Part shown: positions 6,447 through 61,829 of the stretch, piece by piece
How positions within the stretch are numbered: position 1 is the first letter of the stretch
Layout of the letters: the number at the start of each line of letters is the position of its first letter
NCBI GenBank assembly: GCA_001789445.1
Contig: MFZQ01000013.1
Coordinates: 4,596-68,595 of the forward strand
Length of the DNA stretch: 64,000 nt
Source: Candidatus Roizmanbacteria bacterium RIFCSPHIGHO2_02_FULL_40_13b
Lineage (GTDB): Bacteria; Patescibacteriota; Microgenomatia; UBA1406; HO2-37-13b
Reading direction: 5' to 3'
Notes under the pieces: generated by a model
Databases searched by the model: none
Told to the model about the DNA's origin: nothing
The model's input: only the letters and a program-made list of their open reading frames with translations
Made by a program: the position numbers and the translations under genes

Positions 6447-6453
6447 AAAGTGC

Positions 6454-10499: not shown

Positions 10500-10744
10500 C
10501 CACACGATCCTCACATCCCATAATATTCATGTTATAATCAGCATAGTAGTTTTTGAAGAAAAATTAGTTCGTGCACATGACTTTGCGCGCACGAATACTC
10601 GTTTTTCACCCTGAAACACGTTGCTCTTTGACATTTTGCGGAAAACAACTGGCGCTTTTGCCAAACCCACACGTGGCTGAACCAGCTTCAGAATACCAGA
10701 GCAATCCGGCTCACAACCTAACCATCCACATAGGAGGACACAAA

Positions 10745-11104
10745 GTGACATACGAAGAGGTAACAAAGACCATCGTTCTCGTCTGGGCAATCCTGATTAT
10801 TACGATCGCTTTCTTTGCCTTCCCGCCAGGAGTGGTGGTGAATATGGTGGTCACGTTGTTGATGTTTGTCAACGTGATCTTCCTCGTTCGCAGAATGCAA
10901 ACGCACGTGCCGTCAACCGAGCTGGCCAAGGCGTACTTGGTCTGTGTTAACCTTGTGGGAACTCTTATTGGGCTGTTGTCCATCACGAAGTTTTCACGGG
11001 TGACAGCAGAGGTTTTCACAGCGATCATGTTGATCATCCTTGGCCGTGCCGTCCAGCGCATATTCATCCCTGCAGTTCCACCTGACAAGGAGAAAACGAC
11101 GTGA
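10745..11104 (+). CDS. hypothetical small multi-pass membrane protein
   Basis: GTG start 7 nt after AGGAGG. Three to four TM helices. Lies in a visibly GC-richer islet. Confidence 0.4.
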   Translation: MTYEEVTKTIVLVWAILIITIAFFAFPPGVVVNMVVTLLMFVNVIFLVRRMQTHVPSTELAKAYLVCVNLVGTLIGLLSITKFSRVTAEVFTAIMLIILGRAVQRIFIPAVPPDKEKTT

Positions 11105-11798: not shown

Positions 11799-11828
11799 TT
11801 GACAAATATTTATCACATACTCTATACT
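11799..11828 (+). promoter_or_regulatory. sigma70-like promoter TTGACA-18-TATACT
   Basis: ttgaca at 11799-11804 and tatact at 11823-11828. The gdhA ATG lies 10 nt downstream. Confidence 0.5.
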
Positions 11829-11838
11829 ACATGGTAGT

Positions 11839-21040: not shown

Positions 21041-21869
21041 TACTATTTAATAGTAGAGAAGTCTTGTGGCTTTGTCAAGGGGAAAAACAAGTAGATTTGA
21101 TATATTACGATATCTTAAATATAAGAGATTCATACACGAAATAATGAGTTTAGTAAAAGCTTTAATAAGATTAATACATGATAATGCGGTAATTAATGTG
21201 GCTAGTTACTGTATCAGAATAGATAACATATCCTATAAAAATAACGTCGTATAGTTACTATTTTTGTAAAATTGAATTTATGTAATTTGATTAGGTAACT
21301 TATAAATTATATTTAATATTTCTGTGCCTAATTCTAGAGATATGGCTTCCTAATGATCTAGAACAATCATATTTAATTACTATTTAGTTTCAGTGACTAA
21401 AAAGTCGTTTATATCCATATCAAAATTTTAGAGGAAATACCTTTAATTAATTAGCCAGTCATGATAGGAAGAATTGATATTGAGGCTTCTTGATAGCAAG
21501 TTATAGCAGATAGATCTAGTATGGTAGACGATTGAGATGTTACCGCACAAGATCTTACATTATTTGGTTTTTTATCGTTATTAAGTACATTTCGTGTAAA
21601 TTATGAAAATTTTTTAATAATGTAACAGTTATCAATTATGGGTACTGAATGCTAATTTATTAAAATTAAACGAAAGGCTGTTACAAAAGGCTTTATGATT
21701 AACGGATGTGGAAATTAATAAATCACCTATATATTTTTATACTTTTATGTTATGTTGATATACTTTGAAATAATTAATCAGCATTGACAAGAACGTTTCC
21801 GTCTGTTAATCTCTTAATATAAAATCATACGTTCGTATTAAGCGAATAACTACACTAATATAATACACT

Positions 21870-22616
21870 ATGCCAATAAAAGATAGAAGAGTAAAAATAT
21901 TGTTACTGCTTCTCCTAATACCCTCTATTCAATACGATTTCATTGAAATTGACGAAGCAAATCAGAACATATTTGATTTATCTATCAATCAAAAGACAAA
22001 GGGAACTCTTTCAGCTCTACTAAAGGATGGTTCTATTGAAAAAGAAGATCGAAATGGTAGCGTTTTTTATAGAATTACTCAAAAAGGTATTCAAGGACTT
22101 TCTCTAGAATTTCCTTTTTTTAGATTTCTTAGTGAGGAGTGGGATGGATTATGGAGGATTATTTCATATGAAATTCCCGAATCAAAACGAGAAATTCGGG
22201 ATCGGTTAAGACGAGAGATGCGTGGATGGGGACTGGGGCCATGGCATAGGTCATTCTGGATAACCCCACACCCAATAAGTAGCTCCCTAAAGGATCTAGT
22301 TTACGGAAAAGAAGAAGAAAAATACATTCAGTCATTTGAAGCTACACACATGTTTGGAGATATGGATATTCTAGTAGAGAAGGTCTGGGAAAAGTCGCAG
22401 CTTGAGAAGGAATATCGAGCTATGTTCAAGACTTGGCATGAAACACTTTCAACGGACGTTTCAAAAGAAGATAAAATGAAGCAGATTCTATACATATACA
22501 TAGCGACACTTCGCATGGACCCGGGATTACCAAAAAGCTTAGTCGGTAGAAACTTTATTGGGTTTGAGGCATTTGATATATTCAAAGAGGTAAAAGGGAT
22601 TCTTCTAAAAGCCTAA
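21870..22616 (+). CDS. PaaX-like transcriptional regulator
   Basis: WDGLWRIISYEIPESKREIRDRLRREMRGWGLGPWHRSFWITPHP resembles the PaaX C-terminal region. Confidence 0.5.
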   Translation: MPIKDRRVKILLLLLLIPSIQYDFIEIDEANQNIFDLSINQKTKGTLSALLKDGSIEKEDRNGSVFYRITQKGIQGLSLEFPFFRFLSEEWDGLWRIISYEIPESKREIRDRLRREMRGWGLGPWHRSFWITPHPISSSLKDLVYGKEEEKYIQSFEATHMFGDMDILVEKVWEKSQLEKEYRAMFKTWHETLSTDVSKEDKMKQILYIYIATLRMDPGLPKSLVGRNFIGFEAFDIFKEVKGILLKA

Positions 22617-22677
22617 AATACTCATTTTGCGGCATATATACCCTGGTAATTTTCGAATCTATCTGTATGATTCTGAA

Positions 22678-23313
22678 ATGGAGTATTTTGGCGAACACAT
22701 CAAAGAACGGGTGCTATCTTTTTGGACCTCATATCGGTCCGAAGTCCTTCTACTTTCGATCTCCTTTATACTAATGATTTTGTCTGGTGGATTTTTTTTC
22801 ATCCAGAGCAAATCAATTCATGCAGAAAAAGTAACTTCAAAAGTAGTACATCACCGCGTTCAAGATACGGTCGTAAATTTCATTTATGTCGATATATCTG
22901 GTGCGGTAAAAAATCCTAACGTTTATAAATTACCAGAAGGAAGTCGTATGAATGACCTTATTCTTAAAGCTGGTGGATTTACAAAAGACGTCGATTCTCA
23001 AGAGCTTAGTCAAACAGTAAACAAAGCGCATATATTGTCAGATCAAGAAAAAATATATATTCCACGACTAGGGGATTCTCAATACATGACCAAATCCCCA
23101 TCTAATCTCTTATATACAGACCAAAGTGAAAGAAAAATTAATATTAATTCAGCTTCAGAAGAAGAAATAGATACGATTGTAGGTATTGGTCCCGCAATAT
23201 CAAAGAAAATCATTGCGGGAAGGACATACAAAGATATTGCTGATCTTGTGGCTAAAAAAATAGTAGGGCAAGCTCTTTTTATAAAAATAAAAGACAGCAT
23301 TTCAGTGTATTAA
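22678..23313 (+). CDS. comEA: ComEA-like DNA receptor (SLBB + helix-hairpin-helix)
   Basis: N-terminal TM, SLBB-like middle, C-terminal INSASEEEIDTIVGIGPAISKKII HhH. Start placed at the ATG at 22678, 6 nt after tatgat. Confidence 0.7.
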   Translation: MEYFGEHIKERVLSFWTSYRSEVLLLSISFILMILSGGFFFIQSKSIHAEKVTSKVVHHRVQDTVVNFIYVDISGAVKNPNVYKLPEGSRMNDLILKAGGFTKDVDSQELSQTVNKAHILSDQEKIYIPRLGDSQYMTKSPSNLLYTDQSERKININSASEEEIDTIVGIGPAISKKIIAGRTYKDIADLVAKKIVGQALFIKIKDSISVY

Positions 23314-26455: not shown

Positions 26456-26551
26456 TATGAACTTAATAGTGTTTTGTGTTACATGTCTCGTGTTACATGA
26501 TCTGACTTTCATGAATATCATTATATAGAAATCTGTGCTACAATATCTCTC

Positions 26552-26755
26552 ATGGATGATAAGAAAAAAATACTTGCGAATAATTTTGCCGCAGATGTGG
26601 TGGGCGAGCTAAAAAAAGTCACGTGGCCAACACGCAAGGAAGCAGGGCGACTGACCCTAGCTGTATTTGCAATCTGCTTGATTGTTGGTGTCTATCTAGG
26701 TATAATAGACGTCGTACTAGCCAAAGTTTTAGGAATACTTACTACGGCTCAATAA
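26552..26755 (+). CDS. secE: preprotein translocase subunit SecE
   Basis: ELKKVTWPTRKE followed by one TM helix. Position is directly upstream of nusG. Confidence 0.8.
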   Translation: MDDKKKILANNFAADVVGELKKVTWPTRKEAGRLTLAVFAICLIVGVYLGIIDVVLAKVLGILTTAQ

Positions 26756-42361: not shown

Positions 42362-43660
42362 TCACTTAAGCGAGGCAATGGTAGCTTTGAGTTTGGCATC
42401 TTTAAGCATCTTACCAGCGGTTCCAACAGTTGCGTGACCGGCGACAACCTCATCCCATACAGCATCAGCAATTTCCGAAGCAGATGCACCGCCAGCAGTT
42501 GTTTCGATAAAGGTATCAGTACCAAGATCACGTGTGTTTCCCAGTGTATTTTTGGTGAATGTATGCCCGTTCCTGACACCAGTTCTTAGAACCCCCGTGC
42601 CAATATCAATGCCGTATCCAGTGTGTTTATAGATGAGATTATTTTCAAAAATGTTATCTGCAATGCCTGTGCCAGATAACACTACTCCATTGACATTATC
42701 ATAAATAAGACACTGTGAAACGAGGGTACGAGTGGTACTGTTTCCGAATGTAATCCCATCTCCAGTTCCAGATTTTCCATTGAGCTCAATTACTGATGAG
42801 GTAATAGTAGACCGAGTTGATGATGAAATACTAATTCCTGACCCTCGACTTCCAGTTATCCACGTATCTTTTATGAGAGCGTTATCCCCAGTTATTGAAA
42901 TCGCATTTTGTGAACCCGTGCCAGCTGTTGAAATATATATTCCGCTTAGCTCCACATTATCAGCGGTAATGTTTATTGTGGGGCTTGTGTCAAGGGTTGG
43001 TATAAGTTGGAATATATAACCCGGGCCTCGTATTTTTAAATTATTTTTGGTAACAGTAAGCGTTTCAGTTACTGTCGTTGTCCCACTGGTGTTACTACTC
43101 ATACAAAAAATAACATCATTGTTGCCGGCTATGACTAACGTTTGGGCTTGAGAAAATGTAGCCACGGCCTTGGTTGGTTTGGTTCCATCGTTTGCATCAT
43201 CTCCATTTATTGGATTCCAATAAAGATATTGTCCGACACCACGTCTTGAACCAACAAGAGATTCAACTAGATAGAGTAAATTGGTGTCTGATTCAGGTGT
43301 TGCGATAGTTGGGGAAGAGGACTGAGCGATAGTAACGGAGGTAAAGGCTGACGATGCAATAGGATTACCGCTTTCTGCTACTAAATTACCACCAGTAACA
43401 ATGCAAGCTACCGTATCTGGACCTGGACGTGCCTCAAATCGAAGCTTCCAATTATCTAAGAGTACAAGAGTAATCCCCACCGAAACACTACCGCCCAAGT
43501 TCTGTTTCCCAAATGCTTCGGCAATCTGTGAATTTGCTAACCCTGGTGTTAATTCATCTTCGGTGTCTCTGATCTCATTTATCAATGTTTGAAGATCGAC
43601 AGATGTTTGAGGAGCAGGGACCTCGATTATGCTATTGTAAAAATCGAATACAAGTGCCAT
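42362..43660 (-). CDS. right-handed beta-helix (tailspike/pectate-lyase-like) protein, no signal peptide
   Basis: Repeated ~22-aa G/N/I-rich turns (ISITGDNALIKDTWITGSRGSGISISSS... NVNGVVLSGTG...). C-terminus is EIADAVWDEVVAGHATVGTAGKML. Confidence 0.55.
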   Translation of the reverse strand: MALVFDFYNSIIEVPAPQTSVDLQTLINEIRDTEDELTPGLANSQIAEAFGKQNLGGSVSVGITLVLLDNWKLRFEARPGPDTVACIVTGGNLVAESGNPIASSAFTSVTIAQSSSPTIATPESDTNLLYLVESLVGSRRGVGQYLYWNPINGDDANDGTKPTKAVATFSQAQTLVIAGNNDVIFCMSSNTSGTTTVTETLTVTKNNLKIRGPGYIFQLIPTLDTSPTINITADNVELSGIYISTAGTGSQNAISITGDNALIKDTWITGSRGSGISISSSTRSTITSSVIELNGKSGTGDGITFGNSTTRTLVSQCLIYDNVNGVVLSGTGIADNIFENNLIYKHTGYGIDIGTGVLRTGVRNGHTFTKNTLGNTRDLGTDTFIETTAGGASASEIADAVWDEVVAGHATVGTAGKMLKDAKLKATIASLK

Positions 43661-43704
43661 AGATTAATCATATCAAAGATTATATAGAGAATAGAATAAA
43701 GTTA

Positions 43705-44215: not shown

Positions 44216-46189
44216 TCAGGTTACGATTGTATCAGTTGTTCGGATTGCAGAGGTAGAGAATCCGGTTGAGCCAAATGTACCCGTTGTTTCAAATGGTAAA
44301 ATGGCAACTGATGCTTTTCGTCGCACCCGAAGAAGTATTGTTCGGTCTGAAACGTAGATAACCTGAACCGTGATAGAAGTAGAGCTTGCCTGCTCGTCGA
44401 TAAATGGCACATACGCTTTATCATCTGACGCCGTATACGACCGGTCTAGAGTGGGGGAGACACCCGAAAATGTCGATCCACTCCATGAAGTATAGGTGTA
44501 ACGGGTTTCTCGAGTTGCCGTCAAATCACTCGTGTCAACGAGTCTGATAGCTCCAGACGACGGAGTATCATTTGAAATAGCACCAGATACAACAACTGTT
44601 GAATTACCCGAGTTGTTACCTGCGGCTAATGAATACATTGCCTTATCGATAGTGGTACCTGAAGTTGTTCTGAAAACTGACACTCTATCGCCGGAAAGAA
44701 GGTTGGTGATAGTAACACTCTGTTTATTAGGTGGCGTTCTTGTCACACCGTTCGCATCAATCAGTTGGAAGTTCTGAACATCAGCCGCCGCCATATTTTC
44801 GATCCAGACACCTTGGGCACCGAAGAATTTTCCTCCAGCGAAAGTTCCAAGAGGAGAGGCTTTAACTGGTGAGTATGTATTATCAGGAGTGGTTTGATTA
44901 TCTTCATGAGCCCGAATATATTGTTGTCCCTGCAGGGCGCTGTGGGTAATGGCGCCTCCTTGGGCTTTGGCGGTTGGATAGGTACTAAATGTCGAACCAA
45001 CACGAGTGACATATTTAAAATATTCATACGCTTGAGTTAATACTCGGGTAGCACAACCGATAATAACCGAGTAGGGGAAAGATGAACCCTGTTCGAAATT
45101 CTTACTCATAGTATATGCTTCAGTTAAAGTAGAGGAGGACGTAGCTGTAGCACTTGAAGTACCGCCGGTAATGACATTGGTACCATTGAATGTCCCAACT
45201 ACATTACCCAAAGTCATAGTCCCTGCCCCCGTTGTCGTCGTTTGATATAAAAAGATACCAGTGGCGCCAGAAACAGCTTGAGATACAGGCTCTAAGTTGG
45301 TAAATGCCCCACTTATCGCGCTGTAGGTAAGGGTGCCATTGACAAAAGCGATTGTAATATCGCTATATCCTGAAACAGTCGCAGTAGCGGTCAGGTTATT
45401 AAGGTCAGGAGACGTGGCCAACGGTACCGCATTTCGGCCACCTGCGGTAAGATCGATTCCAAAGTGATCGTATAAATCGGCACTACCTCCTGCTGGATAG
45501 TGGCGTAAAAATACGGTAATTTTAGCGAGGTCAATTTCAGTTCCGGCCTCTTTAACTTTAATGAGTACATCAATTTGTCTGGTACCGGCACCTGTTTCAG
45601 GCCACCATTCAGTAAGTCTTGCCCCATTTTGAATGATATATATTTGCTGTGTATCATCTTCTTCAATAGATCCAAGAGTGTAGACGTTAGGATAGAGATT
45701 TTCACCGGTAACCGAGGCTCCGTTGGCATCACCTGCACCAGTACCCGTTGATATCGTCATAACGGAGTTATTGGCTATAGTTGAAGCAGAACGAATCCAC
45801 CATTTATTGAGCGTATTGTCATAGGCAAGCAGCTCTCCAGCTCCGCCTCCGTCGTCCAAAACCGTCTTGCCAATATCGCCTGCCACAGCGTTAACGTAGG
45901 TGCCATCAAGTAGTAATATCTGAATTGCCCCGCTATAACCGCTTGTTTGTATAGCACCACCCTTTAAATATTGAAATGAAGGTTCGTCCATAAACCAACC
46001 ATTGATGAGTGTGTAGTCGGTAGGAGTTTGGGCTGACATTGGAATTGTATCATCCATCTGCGCAAGTTCATCAAACGTATCTTGCAGGTATGAGTAGAGC
46101 GCATTTACGGTATAAACATTACTATTTGCGGAATGATAAACGCGTTTATTTACGTAATCAATTGTAAAATCAGAGCTAATTGTTGCCAT
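44216..46189 (-). CDS. large Thr/Ser/Gly-rich fibre-like protein, no signal peptide
   Basis: 657 aa, beta-rich composition. The C-terminal ~42 aa are homologous to the C-terminus of 47160-49967. Confidence 0.5.
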   Translation of the reverse strand: MATISSDFTIDYVNKRVYHSANSNVYTVNALYSYLQDTFDELAQMDDTIPMSAQTPTDYTLINGWFMDEPSFQYLKGGAIQTSGYSGAIQILLLDGTYVNAVAGDIGKTVLDDGGGAGELLAYDNTLNKWWIRSASTIANNSVMTISTGTGAGDANGASVTGENLYPNVYTLGSIEEDDTQQIYIIQNGARLTEWWPETGAGTRQIDVLIKVKEAGTEIDLAKITVFLRHYPAGGSADLYDHFGIDLTAGGRNAVPLATSPDLNNLTATATVSGYSDITIAFVNGTLTYSAISGAFTNLEPVSQAVSGATGIFLYQTTTTGAGTMTLGNVVGTFNGTNVITGGTSSATATSSSTLTEAYTMSKNFEQGSSFPYSVIIGCATRVLTQAYEYFKYVTRVGSTFSTYPTAKAQGGAITHSALQGQQYIRAHEDNQTTPDNTYSPVKASPLGTFAGGKFFGAQGVWIENMAAADVQNFQLIDANGVTRTPPNKQSVTITNLLSGDRVSVFRTTSGTTIDKAMYSLAAGNNSGNSTVVVSGAISNDTPSSGAIRLVDTSDLTATRETRYTYTSWSGSTFSGVSPTLDRSYTASDDKAYVPFIDEQASSTSITVQVIYVSDRTILLRVRRKASVAILPFETTGTFGSTGFSTSAIRTTDTIVT

Positions 46190-47173: not shown

Positions 47174-49967
47174 TGGTATCTACGATGAGGGTGACCGTTG
47201 TTGTGAACCCCGTTGATGTAATTGTTCCAGTCGAATCGTTTACAAAATATTTTGTATCGCCTGATGATGATTTCCTAACTCTTAGATAGATATCTGTATT
47301 ACTAATGTAATTAAATGTTGTACTTGATGTGCCATTTGTTGCAGTGCCGGTACCGGTTCCAACACCAGTTGCTGTAAATACTAGACCCACCGTATTCGAA
47401 GAGGCTCCAATTAACGTATAGTCTGTTGAACCGATTGTAAGAATCTTATATTTAATACCAATTACAAATGATCCAGCAGTCACGGTTTCGGTATCTTGGT
47501 TCATAAGTTCGCTATTATCACTTGTCTTATAAATGGCAGTCTGGGCAGATTGAATAGGTTTACCAAGGGTATCTACAACGGTTACTTTCAATGTGACTGC
47601 ATTGTTGATTGTAGTTGAAGAACCATCTGATTCTCGGACACTGGGAGTAGAACCACCACTAGTGATGTTAAGAGTTAAAGATCCTCCAGTATTATTGTAA
47701 ATTGCTGCTCCGGCTGAATAGAGATGGTGTGTTTCGGCACCTGCCGCTGTAAGATTAGCTCGTCCAGTAGCCCCACCAGAAATAGCATGGGCGGCGGTAT
47801 CATACAGAGTAATAGTTGTACTTGATTCGCTTCGAACATAGTATAGGTTTCCGTCCGTTAATCCTACATTCTGCGTGCCTCCCTGATCTTGATAATAAGC
47901 TGGATCGCCATTGGTGTACCCATGAACAGCATCAAGTGTTATTACGTCAGTACTGGTATTGATTCCAGAAGAACTTGTAAGAAAAGTTCGTTCAACTGGA
48001 CCAAATGCCGTAAATGTATTACCCGCAAACGAGTAGGTGCCGGCAGTGGTAACGCGAATAGCGTGGCCAGTTGTAGAGGATCCAGTAAAAGTATTATTTT
48101 CAAATATTACAGGTGAGGAGACAGAACTCCATCTGTTTCCAGCCGTCACTCCGGTGACATTAATCGAGGACCCACTTATAACGGTTGAACCATTTGTCGT
48201 TAGTGTGTCATTCCCTGCTGGTACTCTTGAAATGGTTGCACTTGTAATTGTGCAACTTGAAAAATTCAACGTCGGACAAGATGAAAATGCCATTGAATTG
48301 AACGTCATCACATTGCGAAGAGTAACGTTTGCGCCCACGATAACAAGACCGGTAAAATCCCATGTTGCAGCACTCGTTGCCGCCGAGTTAATCTCCCAAT
48401 AATAAGTTGTTGGAGAGGTGACAACCGAATTAGTGTGTTTGACTACATCGCCACTTTTTCCTGCATAACTAATTCCAATGGTGTTATCGGCTGCGTGATA
48501 TTGTAATTCTTTCTTAGATGTATCTGCGCGGCGCGGAAATTGGAGTGAACCGGCATCAATTTGAAAATTTACTGCATCACCTCCACCTATTTGAATAGGG
48601 ACAAAGGACAATATTCCTGTAGAACCTACCTTTTGAATTACTGGGAGGCGAAAACTTTGGCCAATTTCTGACATTCCGTCCGTGTCAACCGGGTTGTTGG
48701 TATCTCCGCCGGCGACTATTTGTGTTTGAACCTGATGCAGTTCGGACATATAGACCGTTGAGGAGAAGGATGGGGCATTGCGCAAAAATTGGATATAGGT
48801 GACGCTAGTAGTTGTGGCGCTCCCACTTGAGCCAGTGTCATAGTCGGACCCGGCGTATCCGGCCTGAATGGCAAACACACATCTTTGCACCGGGTTTGGC
48901 ACAGAGTTTTTTGCAGCGACTTGATAAGCGTTCCAGTTATTGGCACCACTGGCGACGCGCACCACAACACCACCTTGATCAATTGTTCCAATACCAAATG
49001 CACCCATTTTCGGAGTACCTGCTATGAAACTCCCGCAAATTAGGCCGGTAGAAAGATCACGTCCACTTGTTAGTACTAGTTCTGGTCCGGTTAAAGCAGT
49101 CCTGGCTGTGGCTGCCGCAGATGAGTTTACAGCGTTTGAATAGGGGTTGATGCCAAAATCTGCACCATTGGCGGCTGTTGCCTGAGTTAGTGTCTTTCCA
49201 TTGATAGTCGCGGTGACGACATAGGAACCAGAAGCAGAGTAACTGATGTTATTTATGGTGGAAACATGATGACCACAGGTAAGTCGTGTTCCCGGAGAAG
49301 TAGAATCATCTACATACGCAGGAATTTGTCCGCCCGAAGTGTTACGTAGCGCAAAAGTTATTCGGACATAAACAGCAGAAACGCTAGATGACCAGTTTGC
49401 TACCGGTGTTGCTCCGGTTGCCCGTTGGATATACCAAGCTGCTGCCTGATGAGACGAGGTGGTGGCGGTAGTGCCCGTTGAGTCGGCGTTGTAAATTGAC
49501 ATCACTCCCGGATCAGACAGCACTTGTGGTGTTGTGCTGTCTTGAGCGATATGAAAGACCACCAAGGCATCCGTTGTCCCTGTTGTCACCGAAGAATTAA
49601 CCGGCGTTGTCGTGGCAGTTCCCACTCCGGCATGTAGCGGCGTCACGCCGTCAAAAGGGGTCGTAGTATCCACGTCACGGTAGCAATAAATACCACAAGT
49701 ATAAGCATCCGCAGTTGTGAGTGTCAATGTTTCTGTGCTACCTGTTGCCAATACGTAGTATAAATAACTTATTGTGCCTTGTGTTACTGGGTTGGTAGGT
49801 GCACTGGGGAGAGCCGCCCATGATGATCCAGCTATGGTGATGGTGCCGGAGTCCACTGTAATATGCGCAATCAGGATGTCATTTGCTTGGTGTGCAGGCA
49901 TGTTTTGAGCAATGCTTGTAATCGCGCCGCTAACACCACTCTGTGCATGCTCTACGAAATATGCCAT
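47160..49967 (-). CDS. very large Thr/Ser/Gly-rich fibre-like protein, no signal peptide
   Basis: 935 aa, beta-rich. C-terminal YLRVRKSS...STGFTTT module shared with 44216-46189. Confidence 0.5.
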   Translation of the reverse strand: MAYFVEHAQSGVSGAITSIAQNMPAHQANDILIAHITVDSGTITIAGSSWAALPSAPTNPVTQGTISYLYYVLATGSTETLTLTTADAYTCGIYCYRDVDTTTPFDGVTPLHAGVGTATTTPVNSSVTTGTTDALVVFHIAQDSTTPQVLSDPGVMSIYNADSTGTTATTSSHQAAAWYIQRATGATPVANWSSSVSAVYVRITFALRNTSGGQIPAYVDDSTSPGTRLTCGHHVSTINNISYSASGSYVVTATINGKTLTQATAANGADFGINPYSNAVNSSAAATARTALTGPELVLTSGRDLSTGLICGSFIAGTPKMGAFGIGTIDQGGVVVRVASGANNWNAYQVAAKNSVPNPVQRCVFAIQAGYAGSDYDTGSSGSATTTSVTYIQFLRNAPSFSSTVYMSELHQVQTQIVAGGDTNNPVDTDGMSEIGQSFRLPVIQKVGSTGILSFVPIQIGGGDAVNFQIDAGSLQFPRRADTSKKELQYHAADNTIGISYAGKSGDVVKHTNSVVTSPTTYYWEINSAATSAATWDFTGLVIVGANVTLRNVMTFNSMAFSSCPTLNFSSCTITSATISRVPAGNDTLTTNGSTVISGSSINVTGVTAGNRWSSVSSPVIFENNTFTGSSTTGHAIRVTTAGTYSFAGNTFTAFGPVERTFLTSSSGINTSTDVITLDAVHGYTNGDPAYYQDQGGTQNVGLTDGNLYYVRSESSTTITLYDTAAHAISGGATGRANLTAAGAETHHLYSAGAAIYNNTGGSLTLNITSGGSTPSVRESDGSSTTINNAVTLKVTVVDTLGKPIQSAQTAIYKTSDNSELMNQDTETVTAGSFVIGIKYKILTIGSTDYTLIGASSNTVGLVFTATGVGTGTGTATNGTSSTTFNYISNTDIYLRVRKSSSGDTKYFVNDSTGTITSTGFTTTVTLIVDTIASA

Positions 49968-50003
49968 ACGAAAATAGTATCATAAATTCTAGGGTAAATG
50001 AGG

Positions 50004-50839: not shown

Positions 50840-50868
50840 TTGACAAACTGACGGAAATACAGTATTAT
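50840..50868 (+). promoter_or_regulatory. sigma70-like promoter TTGACA-17-TATTAT, 8 nt before the ATG
   Basis: ttgaca at 50840-50845 and tattat at 50863-50868. ATG at 50877. Confidence 0.55.
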
Positions 50869-50876
50869 ACGGTTAT

Positions 50877-52016
50877 ATGAAGATTAAAAGACTTCTAGAA
50901 GATGAAATCTTGGCTCAATTAGAGAGCAGTACTAAGGGCATAGTTATTTATGGTCCACGCCAAGCAGGAAAAACTACTTTGGTTAACGACATATTAACAA
51001 AAAGGAAATGGAAAACTCTTATTCTAAACGGAGATAGGCGCGGGAATTGGTGGGAGACTATCACAAGTCGCGAGTTATCAAAAATAAAACTGCTCTTAAG
51101 TGGTTACCAAACTTTGTTTATTGATGAAGCCCAGAGGATACCTGAAATAGGCTTGAGTCTAAAAATTATCTTAGATGAGTTCCCAGATTTGAAAGTGATT
51201 GTTACTGGTTCTTCCTCGCTTGATTTGGCTAGTAAAATTAGTGAACCATTAACGGGTAGAATTATTACGCATAAGCTGTATCCTATTTCTTTTGTTGAAC
51301 TAAATACAATCTTCACTCCTTTTGAATTACTAGAAAATCTTGAGGAACGGATGATTTTTGGATCTTACCCGGAAATATTTTCTTTACATGGAATTTTAGC
51401 AAAAACTGAATATCTGATGAATCTCACAGATACCTATCTTTATAAAGATTTATTGGAATTTGGGGGAATAAGAAATTCAAACAAAATCAGAGATTTATTG
51501 AAACTATTGGCTTTTCAGATTGGTTCACAGGTATCTTTGTCAGAATTAGGAAACAGTTTGGACTTGAGCAGGACCACTGTGGATAGATATATCGATCTTT
51601 TGGAAAAATCATTTATCGTATTCAGATTAAGTGGATTTAGTCGCAATTTACGTAAAGAAGTTTCTAAAATGGACAAAATATATTTCTATGATATCGGGGT
51701 AAGAAATACTATAATAGGTAATCTAAATTTTCTAAACAACCGCGATGACCAAGGTAAATTATGGGAGAATTTTTTAATGATAGAACGAATCAAACGACAA
51801 CAATATGCTCATACATTATACGGATGTTATTACTGGCGCCTGTCAAGCGGGGCAGAAATTGATTTAGTCGAAGAAGAAGGTGGGCAATTATCGGGTTTTG
51901 AGTTTAAATATACAAAGAAAACGATCAGATCTCCTAAGTCTTGGTTGGAAACGTACTCTAACTCTACATTTCATACCATCAACAAAGATAATTTCTTGGA
52001 TTTTGTGACGATTTAA
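50877..52016 (+). CDS. AAA-type ATPase with C-terminal DUF4143-like region
   Basis: GPRQAGKTTL Walker A and LFIDEAQ Walker B. The C-terminal half looks like the widespread AAA_14/DUF4143 architecture. Confidence 0.65.
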   Translation: MKIKRLLEDEILAQLESSTKGIVIYGPRQAGKTTLVNDILTKRKWKTLILNGDRRGNWWETITSRELSKIKLLLSGYQTLFIDEAQRIPEIGLSLKIILDEFPDLKVIVTGSSSLDLASKISEPLTGRIITHKLYPISFVELNTIFTPFELLENLEERMIFGSYPEIFSLHGILAKTEYLMNLTDTYLYKDLLEFGGIRNSNKIRDLLKLLAFQIGSQVSLSELGNSLDLSRTTVDRYIDLLEKSFIVFRLSGFSRNLRKEVSKMDKIYFYDIGVRNTIIGNLNFLNNRDDQGKLWENFLMIERIKRQQYAHTLYGCYYWRLSSGAEIDLVEEEGGQLSGFEFKYTKKTIRSPKSWLETYSNSTFHTINKDNFLDFVTI

Positions 52017-54707: not shown

Positions 54708-54783
54708 AGGTGTTACTACAGTTACATTATGAATGTTTCATCAAAAAAAAGCAATCGGATGTACGTACTGTATAATAGGAATT

Positions 54784-56832
54784 ATGAATCGTAAATATAC
54801 TCCTAAAGATATAGAACCTAAAATCGCACAATCCTGGGACGATGAAAATATCTATAAGTCAATTCCCCCTATCTCCCAAACCCCTCCTCCCCCAAACCCT
54901 AAAAAGGCATATATCTTAGTCATGTTTCCATATCCTTCAGGCGAGGGTCTGCATACGGGGCATGCGCGAGTTTATACGGGAACAGATGTCCTTGCTCGTT
55001 TTTTTCGTATGAAAGGAAAATCAGTACTTCACCCAATGGGATTTGACGCTTTTGGTCTTCCTGCCGAAAATGCCGCAATTAAGCTCCAAAAAAATCCAAT
55101 AGATATGGTTCCTGAAAATATTGCAAATTTTAAGCGACAAATGAAGCTCCTGGGCTTATCGTATGATTGGAGTAGGGAATTTTCCACAACAGATCCGGAA
55201 TATTACAAATGGACACAGTGGCTTTTCATTCAATTTTTCAAAATGGGGCTTCTTCATAAGAAAGAAACACCAATATTCTATTGCCCAAACTGTAAAACAG
55301 GACTTGCGCAGGAAGAAGTCTTGGAAGATGGGACGCATGAACGATGTGGGACAGCTGTTGAAGAGCGCAACTTGCCGCAGTGGATTTTTCGAATCACTAA
55401 GTATGCTGACAGACTTCTCGATGATCTTGAAGGTCTTGATTGGCCAGCCGGGATATTACAAATGCAGAAAAATTGGATAGGGAAGAAAGTGGGGAAATCT
55501 GGGGAGTCAACATATCATTTGCGAGATTGGATTTTTTCACGACAACGATATTGGGGGGAACCGATACCGATGATTTTTTGTGATAAATGCGCTGAAAAAA
55601 AAATCAACTACTGGGAAGGGGATAGGAGTAGAGGAGTAGATCATAACAATAATGAAGTGGAACAAATGATATCAGGATTTGTGGATGAAGTGAAGGATGA
55701 TTTATATGGATGGTTTCCGGTTGAAGAGAAGGATTTGCCCTTAAAACTTCCCTATGTGAAAAGTTATATGCCAACGGAAAGTGGGCAGTCGCCCTTGTCG
55801 CAAATTGAAGAGTTCGTACATACAACGTGTCCACATTGTGGTTCAGATGCTCGAAGAGAAACAGATACAATGCCCAACTGGGCAGGAAGTAATTGGTATT
55901 TCTTGTATTTTGGCCGTCAGCATGACAAAACTCGCCCACCGTCTTTACAAAATTGGAAAACAGAGATCGGGGATCCATCTGCCCAGTGGCTTCCAGTGGA
56001 TTGGTATCTGGGTGGGGCAGAGCACGCGGTGCTTCATCTTCTGTACGCACGATTTTGGGTCAAAGCGATGAAAGATATAGGACTTGTTTCTTTCAGTGAG
56101 CCCTTTGCCAAGCTTCGAAGTGTGGGAATGGTCCTTGCGTCCGATAATCGAAAAATGAGCAAGTCGCTTGGAAATGTAGTAAATCCGGATGATGTGGTTT
56201 CCGAATATGGAGCCGATACATTACGGGTGTATGAGATGTTTATGGCGCCATTTGGCCAAGAAGTTGCCTGGTCAGAAAGTGCAATCCAGGGTGCCTACCG
56301 ATTTTTGCAAAGAATTTGGCAGATATTCATAAGCTCTGATAGTATAACAGAAAATCAGGATGAGGAAAACTTTGAACTAGTTGCCGAGCTTCAAAGTACC
56401 ATTTCAAGGATCGAGTCAGATATCACGAACGTGAAATTTAATACATCTATTTCAACAATGATGGAATTCATCAATTTGTGGGAAAAAAAGAAGTTATCCC
56501 GTCAGAGTAGTGCAAAGTTCCTACAAATACTTGCCCCATTTGCTCCATTTATGACCGATTATTTATGGAGAGAAATCTTAAAAAATAAAGAATCAATTCA
56601 TATTTCTACATGGCCGAGTGTTGATAAATCGGTAATTTCTATCAAAAAAGTTACCATAACGATTCAAGTTAATGGCAAAATGAGGGGGGTAATTTCGTTC
56701 GAAAATGGGGACGTGGAGGAAAAAGAGGCCATTGAAGAAGCCCTAAAGCTAGAAAATGTGAAAAAATATGTCGTCGATGATACTTATAAAGTAATCTACG
56801 TCAAAGAGAGAGTATTGAACTTTGTAGTTTAA
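54784..56832 (+). CDS. leuS: leucyl-tRNA synthetase lacking the CP1 editing domain
   Basis: PYPSGEGLHTGH (HIGH), KMSKS, NWIGKKVGKSGESTYHLRDWIFSRQRYWGEPIP. 682 aa. Start moved to the ATG at 54784. Confidence 0.85.
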   Translation: MNRKYTPKDIEPKIAQSWDDENIYKSIPPISQTPPPPNPKKAYILVMFPYPSGEGLHTGHARVYTGTDVLARFFRMKGKSVLHPMGFDAFGLPAENAAIKLQKNPIDMVPENIANFKRQMKLLGLSYDWSREFSTTDPEYYKWTQWLFIQFFKMGLLHKKETPIFYCPNCKTGLAQEEVLEDGTHERCGTAVEERNLPQWIFRITKYADRLLDDLEGLDWPAGILQMQKNWIGKKVGKSGESTYHLRDWIFSRQRYWGEPIPMIFCDKCAEKKINYWEGDRSRGVDHNNNEVEQMISGFVDEVKDDLYGWFPVEEKDLPLKLPYVKSYMPTESGQSPLSQIEEFVHTTCPHCGSDARRETDTMPNWAGSNWYFLYFGRQHDKTRPPSLQNWKTEIGDPSAQWLPVDWYLGGAEHAVLHLLYARFWVKAMKDIGLVSFSEPFAKLRSVGMVLASDNRKMSKSLGNVVNPDDVVSEYGADTLRVYEMFMAPFGQEVAWSESAIQGAYRFLQRIWQIFISSDSITENQDEENFELVAELQSTISRIESDITNVKFNTSISTMMEFINLWEKKKLSRQSSAKFLQILAPFAPFMTDYLWREILKNKESIHISTWPSVDKSVISIKKVTITIQVNGKMRGVISFENGDVEEKEAIEEALKLENVKKYVVDDTYKVIYVKERVLNFVV

Positions 56833-56956: not shown

Positions 56957-56980
56957 TCAGCCCTGGTATAATCATCTTCG

Positions 56981-58255
56981 ATGAAAACGAAAAAGACCAC
57001 ACATAAGAACAATCTCACGTCAATCGTCGTAGATACTGCCGCATTTCCTTCTTCAACCGCACTGCTCCTCGTCGGTGCAGGTTCTCGGTACGAAAATAAA
57101 AAAAACAATGGTATTGCACACTTTTTTGAGCATATGGCGTTCAAAGGTTCCAAAAAATATCCGACCGCATTTATTCTCGCATCTCTCGTTGATGGCTTGG
57201 GTGGATCTTTTAATGCATTTACATCTCAAGACCACACAGGATACTATATAAAAGCCCCCACGAAGCACTTCGAAAAAGTAGTTGACGTGATTTCTGACAT
57301 GATCACCCAGCCACTTTTGAAGCCGGAAGAGATCGAACGTGAAAAAGGCGTGATTATCGAAGAGATCAATATGTATGAAGACATGCCCCAGCGCAAAGTT
57401 TTTGAACTCTATGAAAATCTCGTTTTTGCTGGTTCTCCACTTGGATTTGATATTGCGGGGACGAAAGAGACAGTTTCTGCGTTCAATAAGAAAACATTCA
57501 CCGATTACATTGCCTCTCTGTATTTCCCCTCAAATGCAGTCTTTGTGGCGGCAGGGGGACTTTCAGGAACGTCAGCAGAGAGTATTATTTCAGAAAAATT
57601 TAAGGGGTGGAAAGACGGGGAGGCCGGAACATTCTTACCTATAAAGGAGTCCCAAACAAAGCCGCAACTCATGGCTCGACACAAAAAAACAGAGCAGGCT
57701 CATTTATGCATAGGTTTCCGCGCATTTTCATTCAAAGATCCTCGTCGATACGCACTTCAAGTCCTTTCCGCAATCTTGGGAAAGGGGATGTCAAGCAGGC
57801 TTTTCATGGAGGTTCGGGAGCGGCGGGGGCTGGCATACCACATTAGCTCATACACCGACTTTTACGCCGATACAGGGACGATTTTGACCCATGCAGGAAT
57901 TAAGGCGGACAAGAAACAAGTCGAAGAATCGATCAAAATAATTTTGGAAGAGCATGGGAAAATTATAGATGGAAAAATAAAAGGAGAAGAACTTGTGAAA
58001 GTAAAAGAAATGATTAAAGGGGGATTTATACTTTCTTTAGAAGACACGCTTGATGTTGCCTCATATTATGGAAGAAATTTGCTACTTCAAGGAGAATTCA
58101 AGACTCCGGAAGATACGATTAAAAGTATCGAAAAAGTCACGATCGAAGATGTTGTCGCAGTGGCAAAAGATGTTTTTGTAAAGGAAGGTCTAAATATGAC
58201 TCTCATTAGTCCATTCACCGATGGTGAAACACTTGCGAAACAACTCGTGATCTAA
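56981..58255 (+). CDS. M16-family (pitrilysin/insulinase-like) zinc peptidase
   Basis: GIAHFFEHMAFKGS inverted zinc motif HxxEH. 424 aa. Confidence 0.85.
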   Translation: MKTKKTTHKNNLTSIVVDTAAFPSSTALLLVGAGSRYENKKNNGIAHFFEHMAFKGSKKYPTAFILASLVDGLGGSFNAFTSQDHTGYYIKAPTKHFEKVVDVISDMITQPLLKPEEIEREKGVIIEEINMYEDMPQRKVFELYENLVFAGSPLGFDIAGTKETVSAFNKKTFTDYIASLYFPSNAVFVAAGGLSGTSAESIISEKFKGWKDGEAGTFLPIKESQTKPQLMARHKKTEQAHLCIGFRAFSFKDPRRYALQVLSAILGKGMSSRLFMEVRERRGLAYHISSYTDFYADTGTILTHAGIKADKKQVEESIKIILEEHGKIIDGKIKGEELVKVKEMIKGGFILSLEDTLDVASYYGRNLLLQGEFKTPEDTIKSIEKVTIEDVVAVAKDVFVKEGLNMTLISPFTDGETLAKQLVI

Positions 58256-58305
58256 AAACTCATCCTTTTCTTGCAATACCATCTTTCTTCTGCTAGGCTG
58301 AAAGT

Positions 58306-59913
58306 ATGAAAGCAGACGATGTCATCCTGGAAGAGCGTAGCGACGATAGGATCCCATTGTCATTCCCGCGAAGGCGGGAATCTATTCAAATGGATCCCCG
58401 ATCGGGGTCGGGGATGACAAATCTTCGGTCCAGAATGACAAATTCCGTCATCCCGAACATTAATTCTGTCATCCTGAACGGAGTGAAGGATCTCGGTGTG
58501 ATAGTATCTTTATTTTTCCTTTTTGTCTCTCCAGTGAGTGCCTCCACAACTACTTCAAGAATCACCATCCCACTCTCCACAAACTCCACGCTCGTGATTT
58601 CTAACACAGACTCCACAGTAGATAAGAAGATCATCATCTCCGATCATCTCTCCTCAACTCGAGTAATTCTTAACGAAGATGGAACAGAATCATCGTCACT
58701 CTCATACTATCCATATGGAGAACAATTTAACAATTTAACCCCGCTTCGCCCGAGGCTTCGCGAGGGCGCAGCAATTTATCAATTTAACAATAGACTCTAC
58801 ACCGGCCAACGTAAAGTTCCCGGTGACAATCTCTACAACTACAACGCCCGCTTCTATAATCCTACCCTCGGAGTTTTCACCCAACCAGATACAGTGGAGG
58901 GACCAAACAGGTTTGCGTATGTGGGAGGAAATCCGATCATGGCAAATGATCCTAGTGGACATTGTATACCCTGTATTATTGGAATTGGTGCATTAGTTGG
59001 AGCGATGGTATCTTCGCCTATGTCATCAACTGAAGCTGATACTCCGGGAGAAATTGCACGAGTTCAAGAGTGGGAAGCAAGTGGCGGACCAGAATTTAAT
59101 TATCTTATGGGAAGAATGATCCCGGGTGTTGGACAGGGAATGGGTCTTGCAGAACTGGCTAGAGGAGAAGATATTTTGGGTAGAGATGTTAGTCGTGGAC
59201 GTAAAATAATGAATGTTGCGGATATCGCACTTATGGGCGCAACATCAGCAAACAGTTTATTGGGTGCACGAAATACAGCAATACAAAGCGCGCGAGTTGC
59301 CCAGTATGAAGGCGGAGCAGAACTATTGGCGGCTAGAAGTGTGGAGGAAGCACAAGAAGTGTTGAGTGGACAAAGTCCTCTTTCCTATAGTAAAATACCC
59401 TTTAGAGAATCTCTAAGGACAGGAAGTTTAGGAACGTACAATAGCTATAATCAAGAAATTTCTTTAGCAAGCACTGATGTGTTAAACAGCTTAAAACATG
59501 AAGGAGTACATGCACTTCAAGATATAAATGGTCATCCTGGATCTGAATTCGCTACAATATGGGGACCAAAAACGATTGTAGGTGAAGCAAAAGATGTACT
59601 ATTAGGAAGGACTGATTCGTCTTGGCTAAAATCAATGGCACGAGAGGATTATAAAAGTCTTTGGAATGACTATGATTCAGAATTAATGGCATACGCTTCA
59701 GCAAATAAAGGTTCGATTAGTGCACAGATTGGTGGAGCTATGGGTTCAACATCATCGCGTTTGCTATTTAACCAAGGAAACGCAGTAAAAGCGTCAGGGA
59801 TGGGAGTATCTATAGGAATTACAGCTGTTCAGCCATTAGGATATTTTGCACAATTACAAGCACAAGTAATGGCTTCCATTAATGGTGGTTACGAAAGAAT
59901 AAAATTTAAATAA
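58306..59913 (+). CDS. RHS-core polymorphic toxin, C-terminal domain type 2 (HExxH-containing)
   Basis: Same promoter/ATG block and the same ~140-aa RHS-core region as 28674-30038, up to GGNPIMANDPSGH. A different 316-aa tail contains LKHEGVHALQD. Confidence 0.7.
   Translation: MKADDVILEERSDDRIPLSFPRRRESIQMDPRSGSGMTNLRSRMTNSVIPNINSVILNGVKDLGVIVSLFFLFVSPVSASTTTSRITIPLSTNSTLVISNTDSTVDKKIIISDHLSSTRVILNEDGTESSSLSYYPYGEQFNNLTPLRPRLREGAAIYQFNNRLYTGQRKVPGDNLYNYNARFYNPTLGVFTQPDTVEGPNRFAYVGGNPIMANDPSGHCIPCIIGIGALVGAMVSSPMSSTEADTPGEIARVQEWEASGGPEFNYLMGRMIPGVGQGMGLAELARGEDILGRDVSRGRKIMNVADIALMGATSANSLLGARNTAIQSARVAQYEGGAELLAARSVEEAQEVLSGQSPLSYSKIPFRESLRTGSLGTYNSYNQEISLASTDVLNSLKHEGVHALQDINGHPGSEFATIWGPKTIVGEAKDVLLGRTDSSWLKSMAREDYKSLWNDYDSELMAYASANKGSISAQIGGAMGSTSSRLLFNQGNAVKASGMGVSIGITAVQPLGYFAQLQAQVMASINGGYERIKFK
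58321..58492. repeat. cluster of family-A and related hairpin elements inside the 5' coding region of the second RHS gene
   Basis: gtcatcctggaag..ggatc, tgtcattcccgcgaaggcgggaatc..gtcggggatgaca, ..cagaatgaca, cgtcatcccgaac.., tgtcatcctgaacgg..ggatc. Translated as ..LSFPRRRESIQMDPRSGSGMT... Confidence 0.75.
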
Positions 59914-61212: not shown

Positions 61213-61247
61213 TTGTATTTACAACACAAAATCAGTACAATATCACT

Positions 61248-61829
61248 ATGAAAGAACAAACGCTTGTTATTCTCAAACCTGATGCGGTTGCGCGTGGGCT
61301 GATTGGTGAAATCACCGCTCGATTTGAAAAAGTGGGGCTTAAACTGGTTGCGGCAAAGCTCGTGCACGCTAATCGTGAACTTGCAGACAAACATTATCCA
61401 GTAACTCGCGACGAATTCATTCGGGGAATGGGGAATAAAACAGTCGAAAATTATCAAAAACTTGGAGTTGATCTTAGAAAAGAACTTGGAAGTGATGATC
61501 CACTTGAAATTGGTAAAATGATTCGAGAATGGCTTGCGGATATGATCACGTCCGGACCAGTTTTCGCATTCGTTCTTGAGGGTCCACATGCAATCGAGCT
61601 TGTTCGCAAAATTTGCGGACACACGCTTCCGCTCATGGCAAATCCAGGCACGATCCGCGGAGACTTTTCATTCGATTCCTCATATTTGGCAAATACCGCA
61701 AAACGCCCAATAAAAAATCTTATTCATGCTTCAGGAACAGAGGAAGAAGCCGCGTACGAAATTCCACTCTGGTTTTCGAAAGAAGAAATTGTCTCGTATC
61801 CTCGAGTAGAAGAAGCGGTGATGGAATAA
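61248..61829 (+). CDS. ndk: nucleoside diphosphate kinase (long form)
   Basis: TLVILKPDAV and NLIHASG active-site His. About 40 extra residues before SGPVFAFVLEG. Start moved to the ATG at 61248. Confidence 0.85.
   Translation: MKEQTLVILKPDAVARGLIGEITARFEKVGLKLVAAKLVHANRELADKHYPVTRDEFIRGMGNKTVENYQKLGVDLRKELGSDDPLEIGKMIREWLADMITSGPVFAFVLEGPHAIELVRKICGHTLPLMANPGTIRGDFSFDSSYLANTAKRPIKNLIHASGTEEEAAYEIPLWFSKEEIVSYPRVEEAVME

Follow-up and report, generated by a model that had tools for sequence, protein, structure and literature searches.

The DNA analysed here (64,000 nt; hereafter, the window) comes from an uncultured groundwater bacterium, a Candidatus Roizmanbacteria member of Microgenomates in the candidate phyla radiation (CPR). 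Its LeuRS and Rho match Candidatus Roizmanbacteria proteins exactly, and the same contigs occur among assemblies from the Rifle aquifer. The focal site is the promoter and start codon of an ATPase gene, and comprises the following features:

50840..50845, + strand: -35 element TTGACA of the AAA_14 ATPase promoter
50863..50868, + strand: -10 element TATTAT of the same promoter, 17 nt 3' of the -35 element and 8 nt (acggttat) from the ATG
50877..52016, + strand: AAA_14/DUF4143 ATPase gene (379 aa), ATG at 50877

The 5' end of the AAA_14 mRNA is predicted to lie 0-1 nt before ATG 50877. The initial annotation described this site as TTGACA-17-TATTAT-8-ATG and listed further genes with a -10 box close to the start codon; all of these sites were found as written. 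The candidate leaderless genes of the window are as follows:

6418..6456, + strand: yerC/TrpR-like gene; TTGACA 6418-6423, 17 nt, TATACT 6441-6446, 7 nt, ATG 6454
54771..54786, + strand: leuS; TATAAT 54771-54776, 7 nt, ATG 54784; start anchored by the conserved LeuRS N-terminus
56964..56983, + strand: M16 peptidase; extended -10 TGgTATAAT 56964-56972, 8 nt, ATG 56981
61213..61250, + strand: ndk; TTGTAT 61213-61218, 17 nt, TACAAT 61236-61241, 6 nt, ATG 61248
32550..32587, + strand: trpS; TTCTCA 32550-32555, 17 nt, (TGa)TATAAT 32573-32578, 6 nt, ATG 32585
26536..26554, + strand: secE; TGcTACAAT 26536-26544, 7 nt, ATG 26552
22666..22680, + strand: comEA; TATGAT 22666-22671, 6 nt, ATG 22678
2141..2158, - strand: tyrS; TGcTATAAT-6-ATG, start codon 2143
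2470..2487, - strand: 116-aa hypothetical protein; TGtTATAAT-6-ATG
3581..3622, - strand: 205-aa hypothetical protein; TTGACA-16-TATACT-11-ATG, leader of ~4 nt
4927..4967, - strand: 436-aa hypothetical protein; TTGACA-17-TAGACT-9-ATG
11799..11841, + strand: glutamate dehydrogenase; TTGACA-18-TATACT-10-ATG
21038..21078, - strand: 1073-aa protein; TTGACA-17-TACTAT-9-ATG
31560..31598, - strand: glyA (SHMT); TTGAAA-17-TATAGT-7-ATG, start codon 31562, anchored
31832..31869, + strand: 182-aa protein; TTGAAA-17-TACTAT-6-ATG
34544..34584, - strand: 318-aa HTH protein; TTGACA-17-(TGa)TAAGAT-9-ATG
43658..43675, - strand: Beta_helix protein; TGaTATGAT-6-ATG
49965..49982, - strand: 935-aa protein; TGaTACTAT-6-ATG
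21859..21872, + strand: PaaX_M protein; TATAAT-5-ATG
28639..28676, + strand: 454-aa hypothetical protein (previously "RHS"); TTGCAA-17-(TGc)TAGGCT-6-ATG 28674, weak -10
58271..58308, + strand: 535-aa hypothetical protein (previously "RHS"); duplicated TTGCAA-17-TAGGCT-6 promoter, ATG 58306
9002..9007: rho; TATAAA, 5 nt, ATG 9013

The start codon is ATG in all candidates with a start-adjacent promoter, and roughly 24-26 of the ~37 transcription units in the window carry this architecture. The tyrS promoter sits within the 3'-terminal part of the preceding gene. Some examples were less convincing than originally proposed. The sequence TATAAA-5-ATG is present at rho; however, this box lacks the final conserved T and is accompanied by neither a -35 element nor a TG extension. 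Similarly, the paralogues at 28674 and 58306 possess TTGCAA-17-TAGGCT-6-ATG, but TAGGCT is a poor -10 element, although TGc and a TTGCAA -35 element accompany it. Pfam gave no support for the label "RHS" at either paralogue, with no match to either protein. The true start of the paralogue at 58306 is uncertain because a repeat element (58358-58419) falls within its first 40 codons.

The spacing between -10 boxes and start codons, which was central to the initial annotation, was sharply distinct from that in shuffled sequences, at internal ATG decoys, and in identically scored non-CPR genomes. In the gene-first test, TANNNT was sought 5-9 nt before the first ATG of 58 ORFs and was present in 24. 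Dinucleotide shuffles (n=2000) gave a mean of 8.4-10.7 and a maximum of 22, and 0/2000 reached 24 (P<0.0005); the motif preceded 5-9% of internal ATG decoys at the same spacing. The modal spacer in the -10-to-ATG histogram was 6 nt. The promoter-first test began with perfect TTGACA-16..18-TAnnnT sites and sought the start of a long ORF 7-11 nt after the -10 element. Such a start followed 7 of the 11 perfect sites (chance, 4.1%; p=5e-8). Censuses of the window against annotated starts placed 5 of 6 TGnTATAAT sites 5-12 nt before a start (expected, 0.02), and 7/47 TATAAT and 7/47 TTGACA sites at the right distance from one (expected, 0.18 and 0.23, respectively; p<=3e-9 in each census).

The character of the start-adjacent boxes supports their being real sigma-70-type promoters, with TTGACA at 17+/-1 nt or a TG extension. 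When 26 candidates were aligned on the -10 element, positions -23 to -18 read T21 T19 G16.. A16, and the TG extension in the same 17-nt-spacing alignment read T16 G12. Among 33 -10 candidates with a spacer of 5-11 nt, 10 had a TG extension (6% expected, p=2e-5). The -35 element is poor in most TG-bearing candidates; the inverse relation between the TG extension and -35 quality was a trend only (p=0.12). First genes of transcription units were favoured over operon-internal genes both for a -10 match (24/37 vs 9/25, p=0.024) and for the composite motif (17/37 vs 4/25, p=0.013). Nine of the 33 -10 matches (spacer 5-11) precede operon-internal genes, some of them as weak hexamers that may have arisen by chance. 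Promoters with a perfect TTGACA typically have spacers of 9-11 nt, which implies leaders of 1-4 nt rather than strictly leaderless mRNAs. The base before the ATG was dropped as a discriminator; by hand count, a pyrimidine occupied -1 in ~73% of candidates and ~74% of non-candidates.

Start codons were anchored by mapping protein residues to positions in full-length NCBIfam family models for five housekeeping genes. Residue 1 corresponded to model position 1 in both TyrRS and TrpRS, residue 5 to position 3 in SHMT, residue 3 to position 2 in NDK, and residue 5 to position 4 in LeuRS. As judged by homology, the -10-adjacent ATG is the start in all five.

The usage of Shine-Dalgarno (SD) sequences was very low, with an SD-like motif at ~4% of genes vs 52% in identically scored non-CPR loci. 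Strong AGGAGG sites upstream of starts were nevertheless enriched (3 vs 0.2 expected), and the exceptions previously named as SD-led are all real:

6823..6839, + strand: hutH; AGGAGG 8 nt before ATG 6837
10732..10747, + strand: gene starting at 10745; AGGAGG 10732-10737, 7 nt, GTG 10745
34744..34899, + strand: tatA (46 aa); ORF 34759..34899, AGGAGG 34744-34749, AGGAGGTGA in the leader

Strong AGGAGG is present at hutH, two tatA genes, and GTG 10745, and AAGGAG at GTG 11101; GTG is the start at two strong-SD genes. The sole candidate with an SD-like core is leuS, at which AGGA, only 3 nt from the ATG, is too near to act as an SD sequence. Approximately 22 of 25 operon-internal genes have no SD-like motif, and most start <=9 nt from the upstream stop codon. 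Since they have neither signal and are so close to the preceding gene, these genes probably rely on translational coupling. In lacking SD sequences, the operon-internal genes differ from those of classic leaderless-rich genomes, so the low SD usage is in part a separate phenomenon. Rfam (gathering thresholds) and tRNA scans of the window found nothing and, thus, no rRNA or anti-SD sequence; none of the 114 fetched loci contained a 16S 3' region.

Other bacteria are well known to initiate translation on leaderless mRNAs, in which there is no ribosome-binding site. We propose the following account. Sigma-70/sigma-A promoters in the window are positioned such that the -10 element ends 5-11 nt, mostly 6 nt, before the ATG, and are either TTGACA-17-TAnnnT or an extended -10, TGnTAnnnT. 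RNA polymerase starting ~7 nt past the -10 element would begin the transcript at the A of AUG or 1-4 nt earlier, and there would be no space for an SD sequence. The ribosome, with initiator tRNA, would then bind the 5'-terminal AUG directly. Operon-internal genes, with neither signal, are probably served by translational coupling, and strong AGGAGG sequences are retained at a few leadered genes. Across bacteria, the distribution of the transcription start site (TSS) centres on 7 bp past the -10 element (PMC12641261); with the modal 6-nt spacer, this position is the A of the start codon. Leaderless genes are recognised by a Pribnow box at 6-8 nt from their starts (PMC6028130). Approximately two thirds of transcription units have a promoter near enough to the ATG for the start codon to be the expected 5' end of the mRNA. 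The architecture, its statistics, the promoter character, the start-codon positions, and the conservation in relatives described below were observed; from these, we infer the TSS positions and the mode of ribosome recruitment. The initial annotation had suggested leaderless initiation as a major mode in this organism, and spacing and SD usage, which were two of the three computational checks proposed there, support this suggestion, as do the promoter signature and the anchored starts, the leaderless start itself being deduced. We consider it very probable that leaderless initiation occurs via start-adjacent sigma-70/sigma-A promoters in this Roizmanbacteria window.

The pattern extends to relatives. 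Composite promoters (spacer 5-10) numbered 0.27 per gene in the window, 0.24 in the nearest LeuRS relatives, and 0.014 in non-CPR loci, against a per-gene background of 0.015-0.03. Microgenomates-like contigs from metagenomes contained 16 (1.0 expected). At trpS in the relatives, an extended or plain -10 element lies 5-7 nt before the ATG in L108, L100, L091, L093, L095, and L114, which represent distinct trpS upstream sequences; the upstream region is otherwise unconserved, and protein identity is 55-81%. The pattern was weaker in other CPR lineages than in Microgenomates-like relatives, with 9 composite promoters (spacer 5-10) vs 1.8 expected in Saccharibacteria and 13 vs 4.2 expected in Parcubacteria-type lineages. 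Significance at other CPR loci was confined to the gene-first composite test; when the close relatives were set aside, the promoter-first test on labelled CPR loci yielded a non-significant odds ratio of 2 (p=0.23). Homologues of a candidate ncRNA at 8697-8912 were not found among the fetched loci.

The TATAAT-like boxes may instead be A/T-rich non-SD ribosome-binding or unstructured initiation regions on leadered mRNAs, as in the "group B" genomes of Bacteroidota. This reading agrees with the very low overall SD usage, the A-rich and SD-less regions upstream of operon-internal genes, and the occurrence of some TAnnnT match at 9/25 internal genes. However, a ribosome site should precede all genes (PMC6028130), whereas the boxes are enriched at first genes (p=0.013-0.024). 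Moreover, TTGACA at 16-18 nt or TG accompanies them far above chance, and 5/6 TGnTATAAT sites of the window are at starts. We regard this explanation as very unlikely. An artefact of AT-rich composition or of misplaced starts is extremely unlikely. The GC content of the window is ~40%, Prodigal-type callers are able to learn upstream motifs, and at least two public starts (ndk at 61182 and the ORF from 10577) look wrong. Nevertheless, motif-blind starts (longest ORF, first ATG) gave the same result, neither dinucleotide shuffles nor decoy ATGs reproduced it, and low-GC Firmicutes loci (GC 0.25-0.35) under identical scoring showed depletion, not enrichment. With five starts anchored by family models, this explanation has largely been refuted.

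Start-adjacent promoters may also be real but secondary, with the main transcripts leadered, SD-less, and derived from read-through or from promoters further upstream. In some cases the intergenic region is long (e.g. 734 nt ahead of gdh and 615 nt ahead of the PaaX_M gene), a perfect promoter lies 51 nt upstream of the gene at 44216..46189, and for any single gene a promoter further upstream may give leadered transcripts. We consider this very unlikely: at the listed genes, a strict promoter scan reported nothing further upstream than the start-adjacent site. Furthermore, the adjacency at trpS is kept across relatives at 55-81% protein identity, which argues for selection on promoter position.

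The window presents a known bacterial leaderless architecture, "group C" of GeneMarkS-2, in a lineage for which we found no earlier report; our literature search for leaderless initiation in CPR/Patescibacteria, including Saccharibacteria, Parcubacteria, and Microgenomates, found none. Nanosynbacter lyticus is reportedly the one CPR species with TSS data. Group C includes Actinobacteria (Mycobacterium, Streptomyces, and Corynebacterium) and Deinococcus-Thermus. As in that group, the first genes of operons have a Pribnow box 6-8 nt ahead of the start codon and no SD sequence, the start codon is at the predicted 5' end, and a large share of units is involved (~65% in the window). The leaderless share is predicted to be 25-50% for group C, and 167/262 genes were leaderless in Deinococcus deserti (PMC6028130). 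Unlike group C, the host of the window is a low-GC (~40%) CPR bacterium with a reduced genome. Its promoters are near-canonical TTGACA/TATAAT or TGn-extended, whereas the actinobacterial type is -35-poor, and its operon-internal genes mostly lack an SD sequence, whereas the non-leaderless genes of group C use one.

Other systems resemble the window in part. Archaeal "group D" genomes (Haloferax and Sulfolobus) also start most units at or beside the start codon, with SD sequences in a minor role; however, the archaeal TATA/BRE box lies ~26 nt upstream, whereas the window has bacterial -35, -10, and extended -10 elements. Group B (Bacteroidota and Cyanobacteria) shares very low SD usage and A-rich pre-start regions with the operon-internal genes of the window. 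In contrast, the group B motif is a non-promoter element found before all genes, while the motif in the window comes with a -35 element or TG and prefers first genes. The extended -10 (TGnTATAAT) of E. coli and Firmicutes has the same TG one base upstream of the -10 element, and most TG-bearing candidates in the window have a poor -35 element. The promoter itself is ordinary; it stands out solely by where it lies relative to the ATG.

We tentatively raise the possibility, which we hold to be somewhat doubtful, that leaderless initiation is a clade-level trait of CPR bacteria. It would be dominant in Roizmanbacteria-like Microgenomates (approximately two thirds of units) and rarer in Saccharibacteria and Parcubacteria-type lineages. 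Together with the scarcity of SD sequences even at operon-internal genes, it would imply that the reduced CPR ribosome mainly performs 5'-end (70S-type) initiation and re-initiation. If so, SD pairing in CPR bacteria would be kept for few genes, and CPR would join Actinobacteria and Deinococcus-Thermus as a third major bacterial group whose initiation regime is archaeal-like or ancestral-like. In CPR bacteria, ribosomes are reduced and regulators are few. Mostly leaderless and coupled initiation would suit such economy, and is relevant to the proposal that the leaderless mode is ancestral. The genetics of Patescibacteria is emerging and needs expression cassettes, for which the present data suggest TGnTATAAT-N6-ATG as a sufficient native design. 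Gene callers tuned to SD sequences misplace starts in such genomes. The promoter-ATG rule may be used to correct starts and predict transcription units across thousands of CPR genome bins. In the window, the public call places the ndk start at 61182, probably ~22 codons too early, and the ORF with a public start at 10577 probably begins at the SD-led GTG 10745 instead.

The promoter of the AAA_14 ATPase gene (50877..52016, + strand) consists of TTGACA (50840-50845), a gap of 17 nt and TATTAT (50863-50868), followed after 8 nt by the ATG at 50877. The initial annotation attributed such -10 boxes adjoining start codons to leaderless mRNAs, and we found all of the other promoter sites it listed, each where the annotation placed it. 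However, the rho example is weak: its TATAAA does not end in the conserved T and is paired with neither a -35 nor a TG. TAGGCT, found at the two paralogues labelled "RHS", is a poor -10, albeit accompanied in both cases by TGc and a TTGCAA -35, and Pfam gives no support for that label. The Shine-Dalgarno (SD) counter-examples were also present (hutH; plus-strand tatA, 34759..34899; AGGAGG-7-GTG at 10745).

The distribution of -10-to-ATG distances was unlike that of shuffled sequences. With motif-blind start definitions (longest ORF or first ATG), the TANNNT-to-start distance peaked at 6 nt, and 24 of 58 ORFs had TANNNT at a spacer of 5-9 nt versus 8.4-10.7 in dinucleotide-preserving shuffles, none of which (0/2000) reached 24. 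Only 5-9% of decoy ATGs inside genes had TANNNT at that spacing. In the reverse test, which started from promoters (perfect TTGACA, 16-18 nt, TAnnnT, <=2 mismatches; n=11), a long-ORF start codon lay 7-11 nt after 7 sites, versus 4.1% of random positions (p=5e-8). Consensus motifs were also counted across the whole window.

Consensus motifs in the window and at promoter distance from an annotated start
TATAAT: 47 in the window; 7 at promoter distance; 0.18 expected
TGnTATAAT: 6 in the window; 5 at promoter distance; 0.02 expected
TTGACA: 47 in the window; 7 at promoter distance; 0.23 expected

In total, 33 genes had TAnnnT 5-11 nt before the ATG (hereafter, candidates). Some of these matches involve weak hexamers and are probably due to chance.

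A start-adjacent TAnnnT may be a promoter or a non-SD ribosome-binding motif, and enrichment at first genes is the criterion dividing the two (PMC6028130). The -10 box alone was found at 24/37 first genes of transcription units versus 9/25 internal genes (p=0.024), and the composite motif at 17/37 versus 4/25 (p=0.013); the gene set comprised the public calls with a corrected ndk start and the plus-strand tatA added. When 26 candidates were aligned by the -10 hexamer alone, T(21) T(19) G(16).. A(16) emerged 17 nt upstream and T(16) G(12), the TGn extension, directly upstream. TG was present in 10/33 candidates versus 6% expected (p=2e-5). The -35 was poor in most TG-bearing candidates, although this inverse relation was no more than a trend (p=0.12). 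The distance to the ATG was 7-11 nt (median 9) for consensus-TTGACA promoters versus 6-9 nt (median 6) for TG-extended promoters (Mann-Whitney p=0.027), which could reflect different start-site selection or leaders of 1-4 nt.

The start codons themselves were checked by aligning full-length NCBIfam models to proteins read from the -10-adjacent ATGs.

Protein residue and the model position to which it aligns
TyrRS: residue 1 to position 1
TrpRS: residue 1 to position 1
SHMT: residue 5 to position 3
NDK (from 61248): residue 3 to position 2
LeuRS: residue 5 to position 4

For ndk, this favours the start at 61248; the protein read from 61182, as in the public call, has 22 extra residues that remain unmatched. 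Public starts disagreed with the evidence in regions 61182-61250, 10577-10747 and 50711-50765; records differ on the start of the TPR protein in the last region, and GTG 10745, which is preceded by an SD, is a likelier start than the ATG at 10577 from which its ORF is publicly called.

SD usage was low. By a simple core-motif test (4-18 nt upstream of the start), 4% of window genes had an SD-like site versus 52% in identically scored loci outside the candidate phyla radiation (CPR), mostly from Firmicutes. AGGAGG preceded 3/62 starts (0.2 expected). Two SD-led genes start with GTG (10745, 11101), and the candidates all start with ATG. Judged by intergenic distance, 18 of the 25 genes inside operons either overlap the stop codon of the preceding gene or begin <=9 nt from it. 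Since these have neither an SD nor a promoter, they are likely started by translational coupling. A methionyl-tRNA formyltransferase gene (72..938) fits standard formyl-methionine initiation. Strong AGGAGG sites, rare in the window, occur at two of the four small tatA/tatE-like genes, which accompany tatC:

34759-34899 (+), 46-aa tatA copy absent from public gene calls
37536-37679 (-), tatA/tatE-like
38478-38615 (-), tatA/tatE-like
38621-38860 (-), tatA/tatE-like

We applied identical scoring to 80 loci around LeuRS homologues, with a modest sample size per lineage.

Composite promoters per gene (spacer 5-10), background and SD-like fraction
Window: 0.27; 0.025; 0.04
Five nearest relatives (L001-L005): 0.24; 0.015; 0.07
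Other labelled CPR: 0.09; 0.027; 0.13
Non-CPR: 0.014; 0.030; 0.52

The promoter-first contrast between the window plus relatives and non-CPR gave an odds ratio of 13 (p=1.6e-7). Independent metagenome contigs retrieved via TrpRS (52-70% identity) had 16 composite matches versus 1.0 expected. In six relative loci with distinct upstream sequences (L108, L100, L091, L093, L095 and L114), the trpS -10 box, often TGn-extended, lies 5-7 nt before the ATG; it lies at 10-14 nt in L090, L096 and L089, and more distant clades have an SD in its place. Upstream trpS DNA among relatives is unalignable apart from the -10 box. In several further CPR lineages, the LeuRS gene displays this adjacency too. Gene-first enrichment was weaker yet significant in Saccharibacteria (9 versus 1.8 expected) and Parcubacteria-type loci (13 versus 4.2), and the promoter-first test was not significant in other CPR. 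The LeuRS and Rho sequences of the window are identical to database entries from Candidatus Roizmanbacteria bacterium, a lineage of the Microgenomates within the CPR (Patescibacteria). Among the species representatives of the genome collection, the nearest ones, labelled Microgenomates or Patescibacteria, reach only 53% LeuRS identity, and the window's contigs recur in Rifle aquifer assemblies (among them GCA_001787945.1 contig MFZH01000024.1 and a 65,695-bp ENA scaffold).

Across bacteria, transcription starts centre on a point 7 bp past the -10 box (PMC12641261); with the modal 6-nt spacer, +1 would therefore fall on the A of the ATG. A spacer of 7-8 nt would be inside normal start-site flexibility, and one of 9-11 nt, typical of perfect-TTGACA promoters, is predicted to yield a leader of 1-4 nt. 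No candidate mRNA would have room for an SD, and translation would have to begin at a 5'-terminal or near-terminal AUG. The pattern fits approximately 24-26 of roughly 37 transcription units, which we infer from sequence to be leaderless or nearly so. This share is at the upper end of the reported bacterial range (PMC6028130).

This architecture corresponds to GeneMarkS-2 "group C", documented mainly in Actinobacteria and Deinococcus-Thermus and rare in Proteobacteria and Firmicutes (PMC6028130). Three features set the present case apart from group C: a CPR host of low GC content (approximately 40% in the 64-kb window), near-canonical or TG-extended promoters, and operon-internal genes that lack an SD. 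A full-text search of open-access papers and preprints found no paper on leaderless mRNAs in CPR/Patescibacteria; according to a study of CPR ribosomes, in which leaderless mRNAs are not discussed, only a subgroup of Parcubacteria has lost the anti-SD motif (PMC9297842).

One perfect consensus promoter has no ORF behind it:

8663-8916 (+), orphan promoter region: TTGACA 8663-8668, 16 nt, TATAAT 8685-8690
8884-8907 (+), stem of an intrinsic terminator, then a T run

The predicted transcript of approximately 215 nt ends at this terminator and folds into a rod with paired 5' and 3' ends (MFE -72.2 kcal/mol, z=-5.0). At E<=1, Rfam still returned nothing for it, and neither tRNAs nor Rfam-recognisable RNAs were found in the 64-kb window. 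We regard the transcript as a candidate for a structured ncRNA or, alternatively, for a long attenuating leader belonging to rho. The segment of approximately 95 nt that precedes the yerC promoter (6330-6424, +) recurs almost exactly before the orphan promoter (8581-8669, +), with the -35 included. The inverted repeat TGTACAC...GTGTACA, present in both copies, resembles an operator or activator site.

We also noted a dispersed, MITE- or REP-like family of 58-97-bp double hairpins bounded by TGTCATYCC...GGRATGACA (22 end motifs versus 1.1 expected in the window), with a nested 20-bp palindrome, CCTGCCTGCCGGCAGGCAGG, in some copies. Examples are:

968-1029, double hairpin
2511-2572, double hairpin
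10388-10469, double hairpin
13308-13404, double hairpin
17726-17807, double hairpin
32466-32523, double hairpin
39041-39121, double hairpin
58358-58419, double hairpin
60983-61042, double hairpin

Most copies are intergenic. One falls within the first 40 codons of the gene at 58306 as annotated, which makes the start of that gene uncertain. The relative locus L001 has a similar hairpin in front of leuS.
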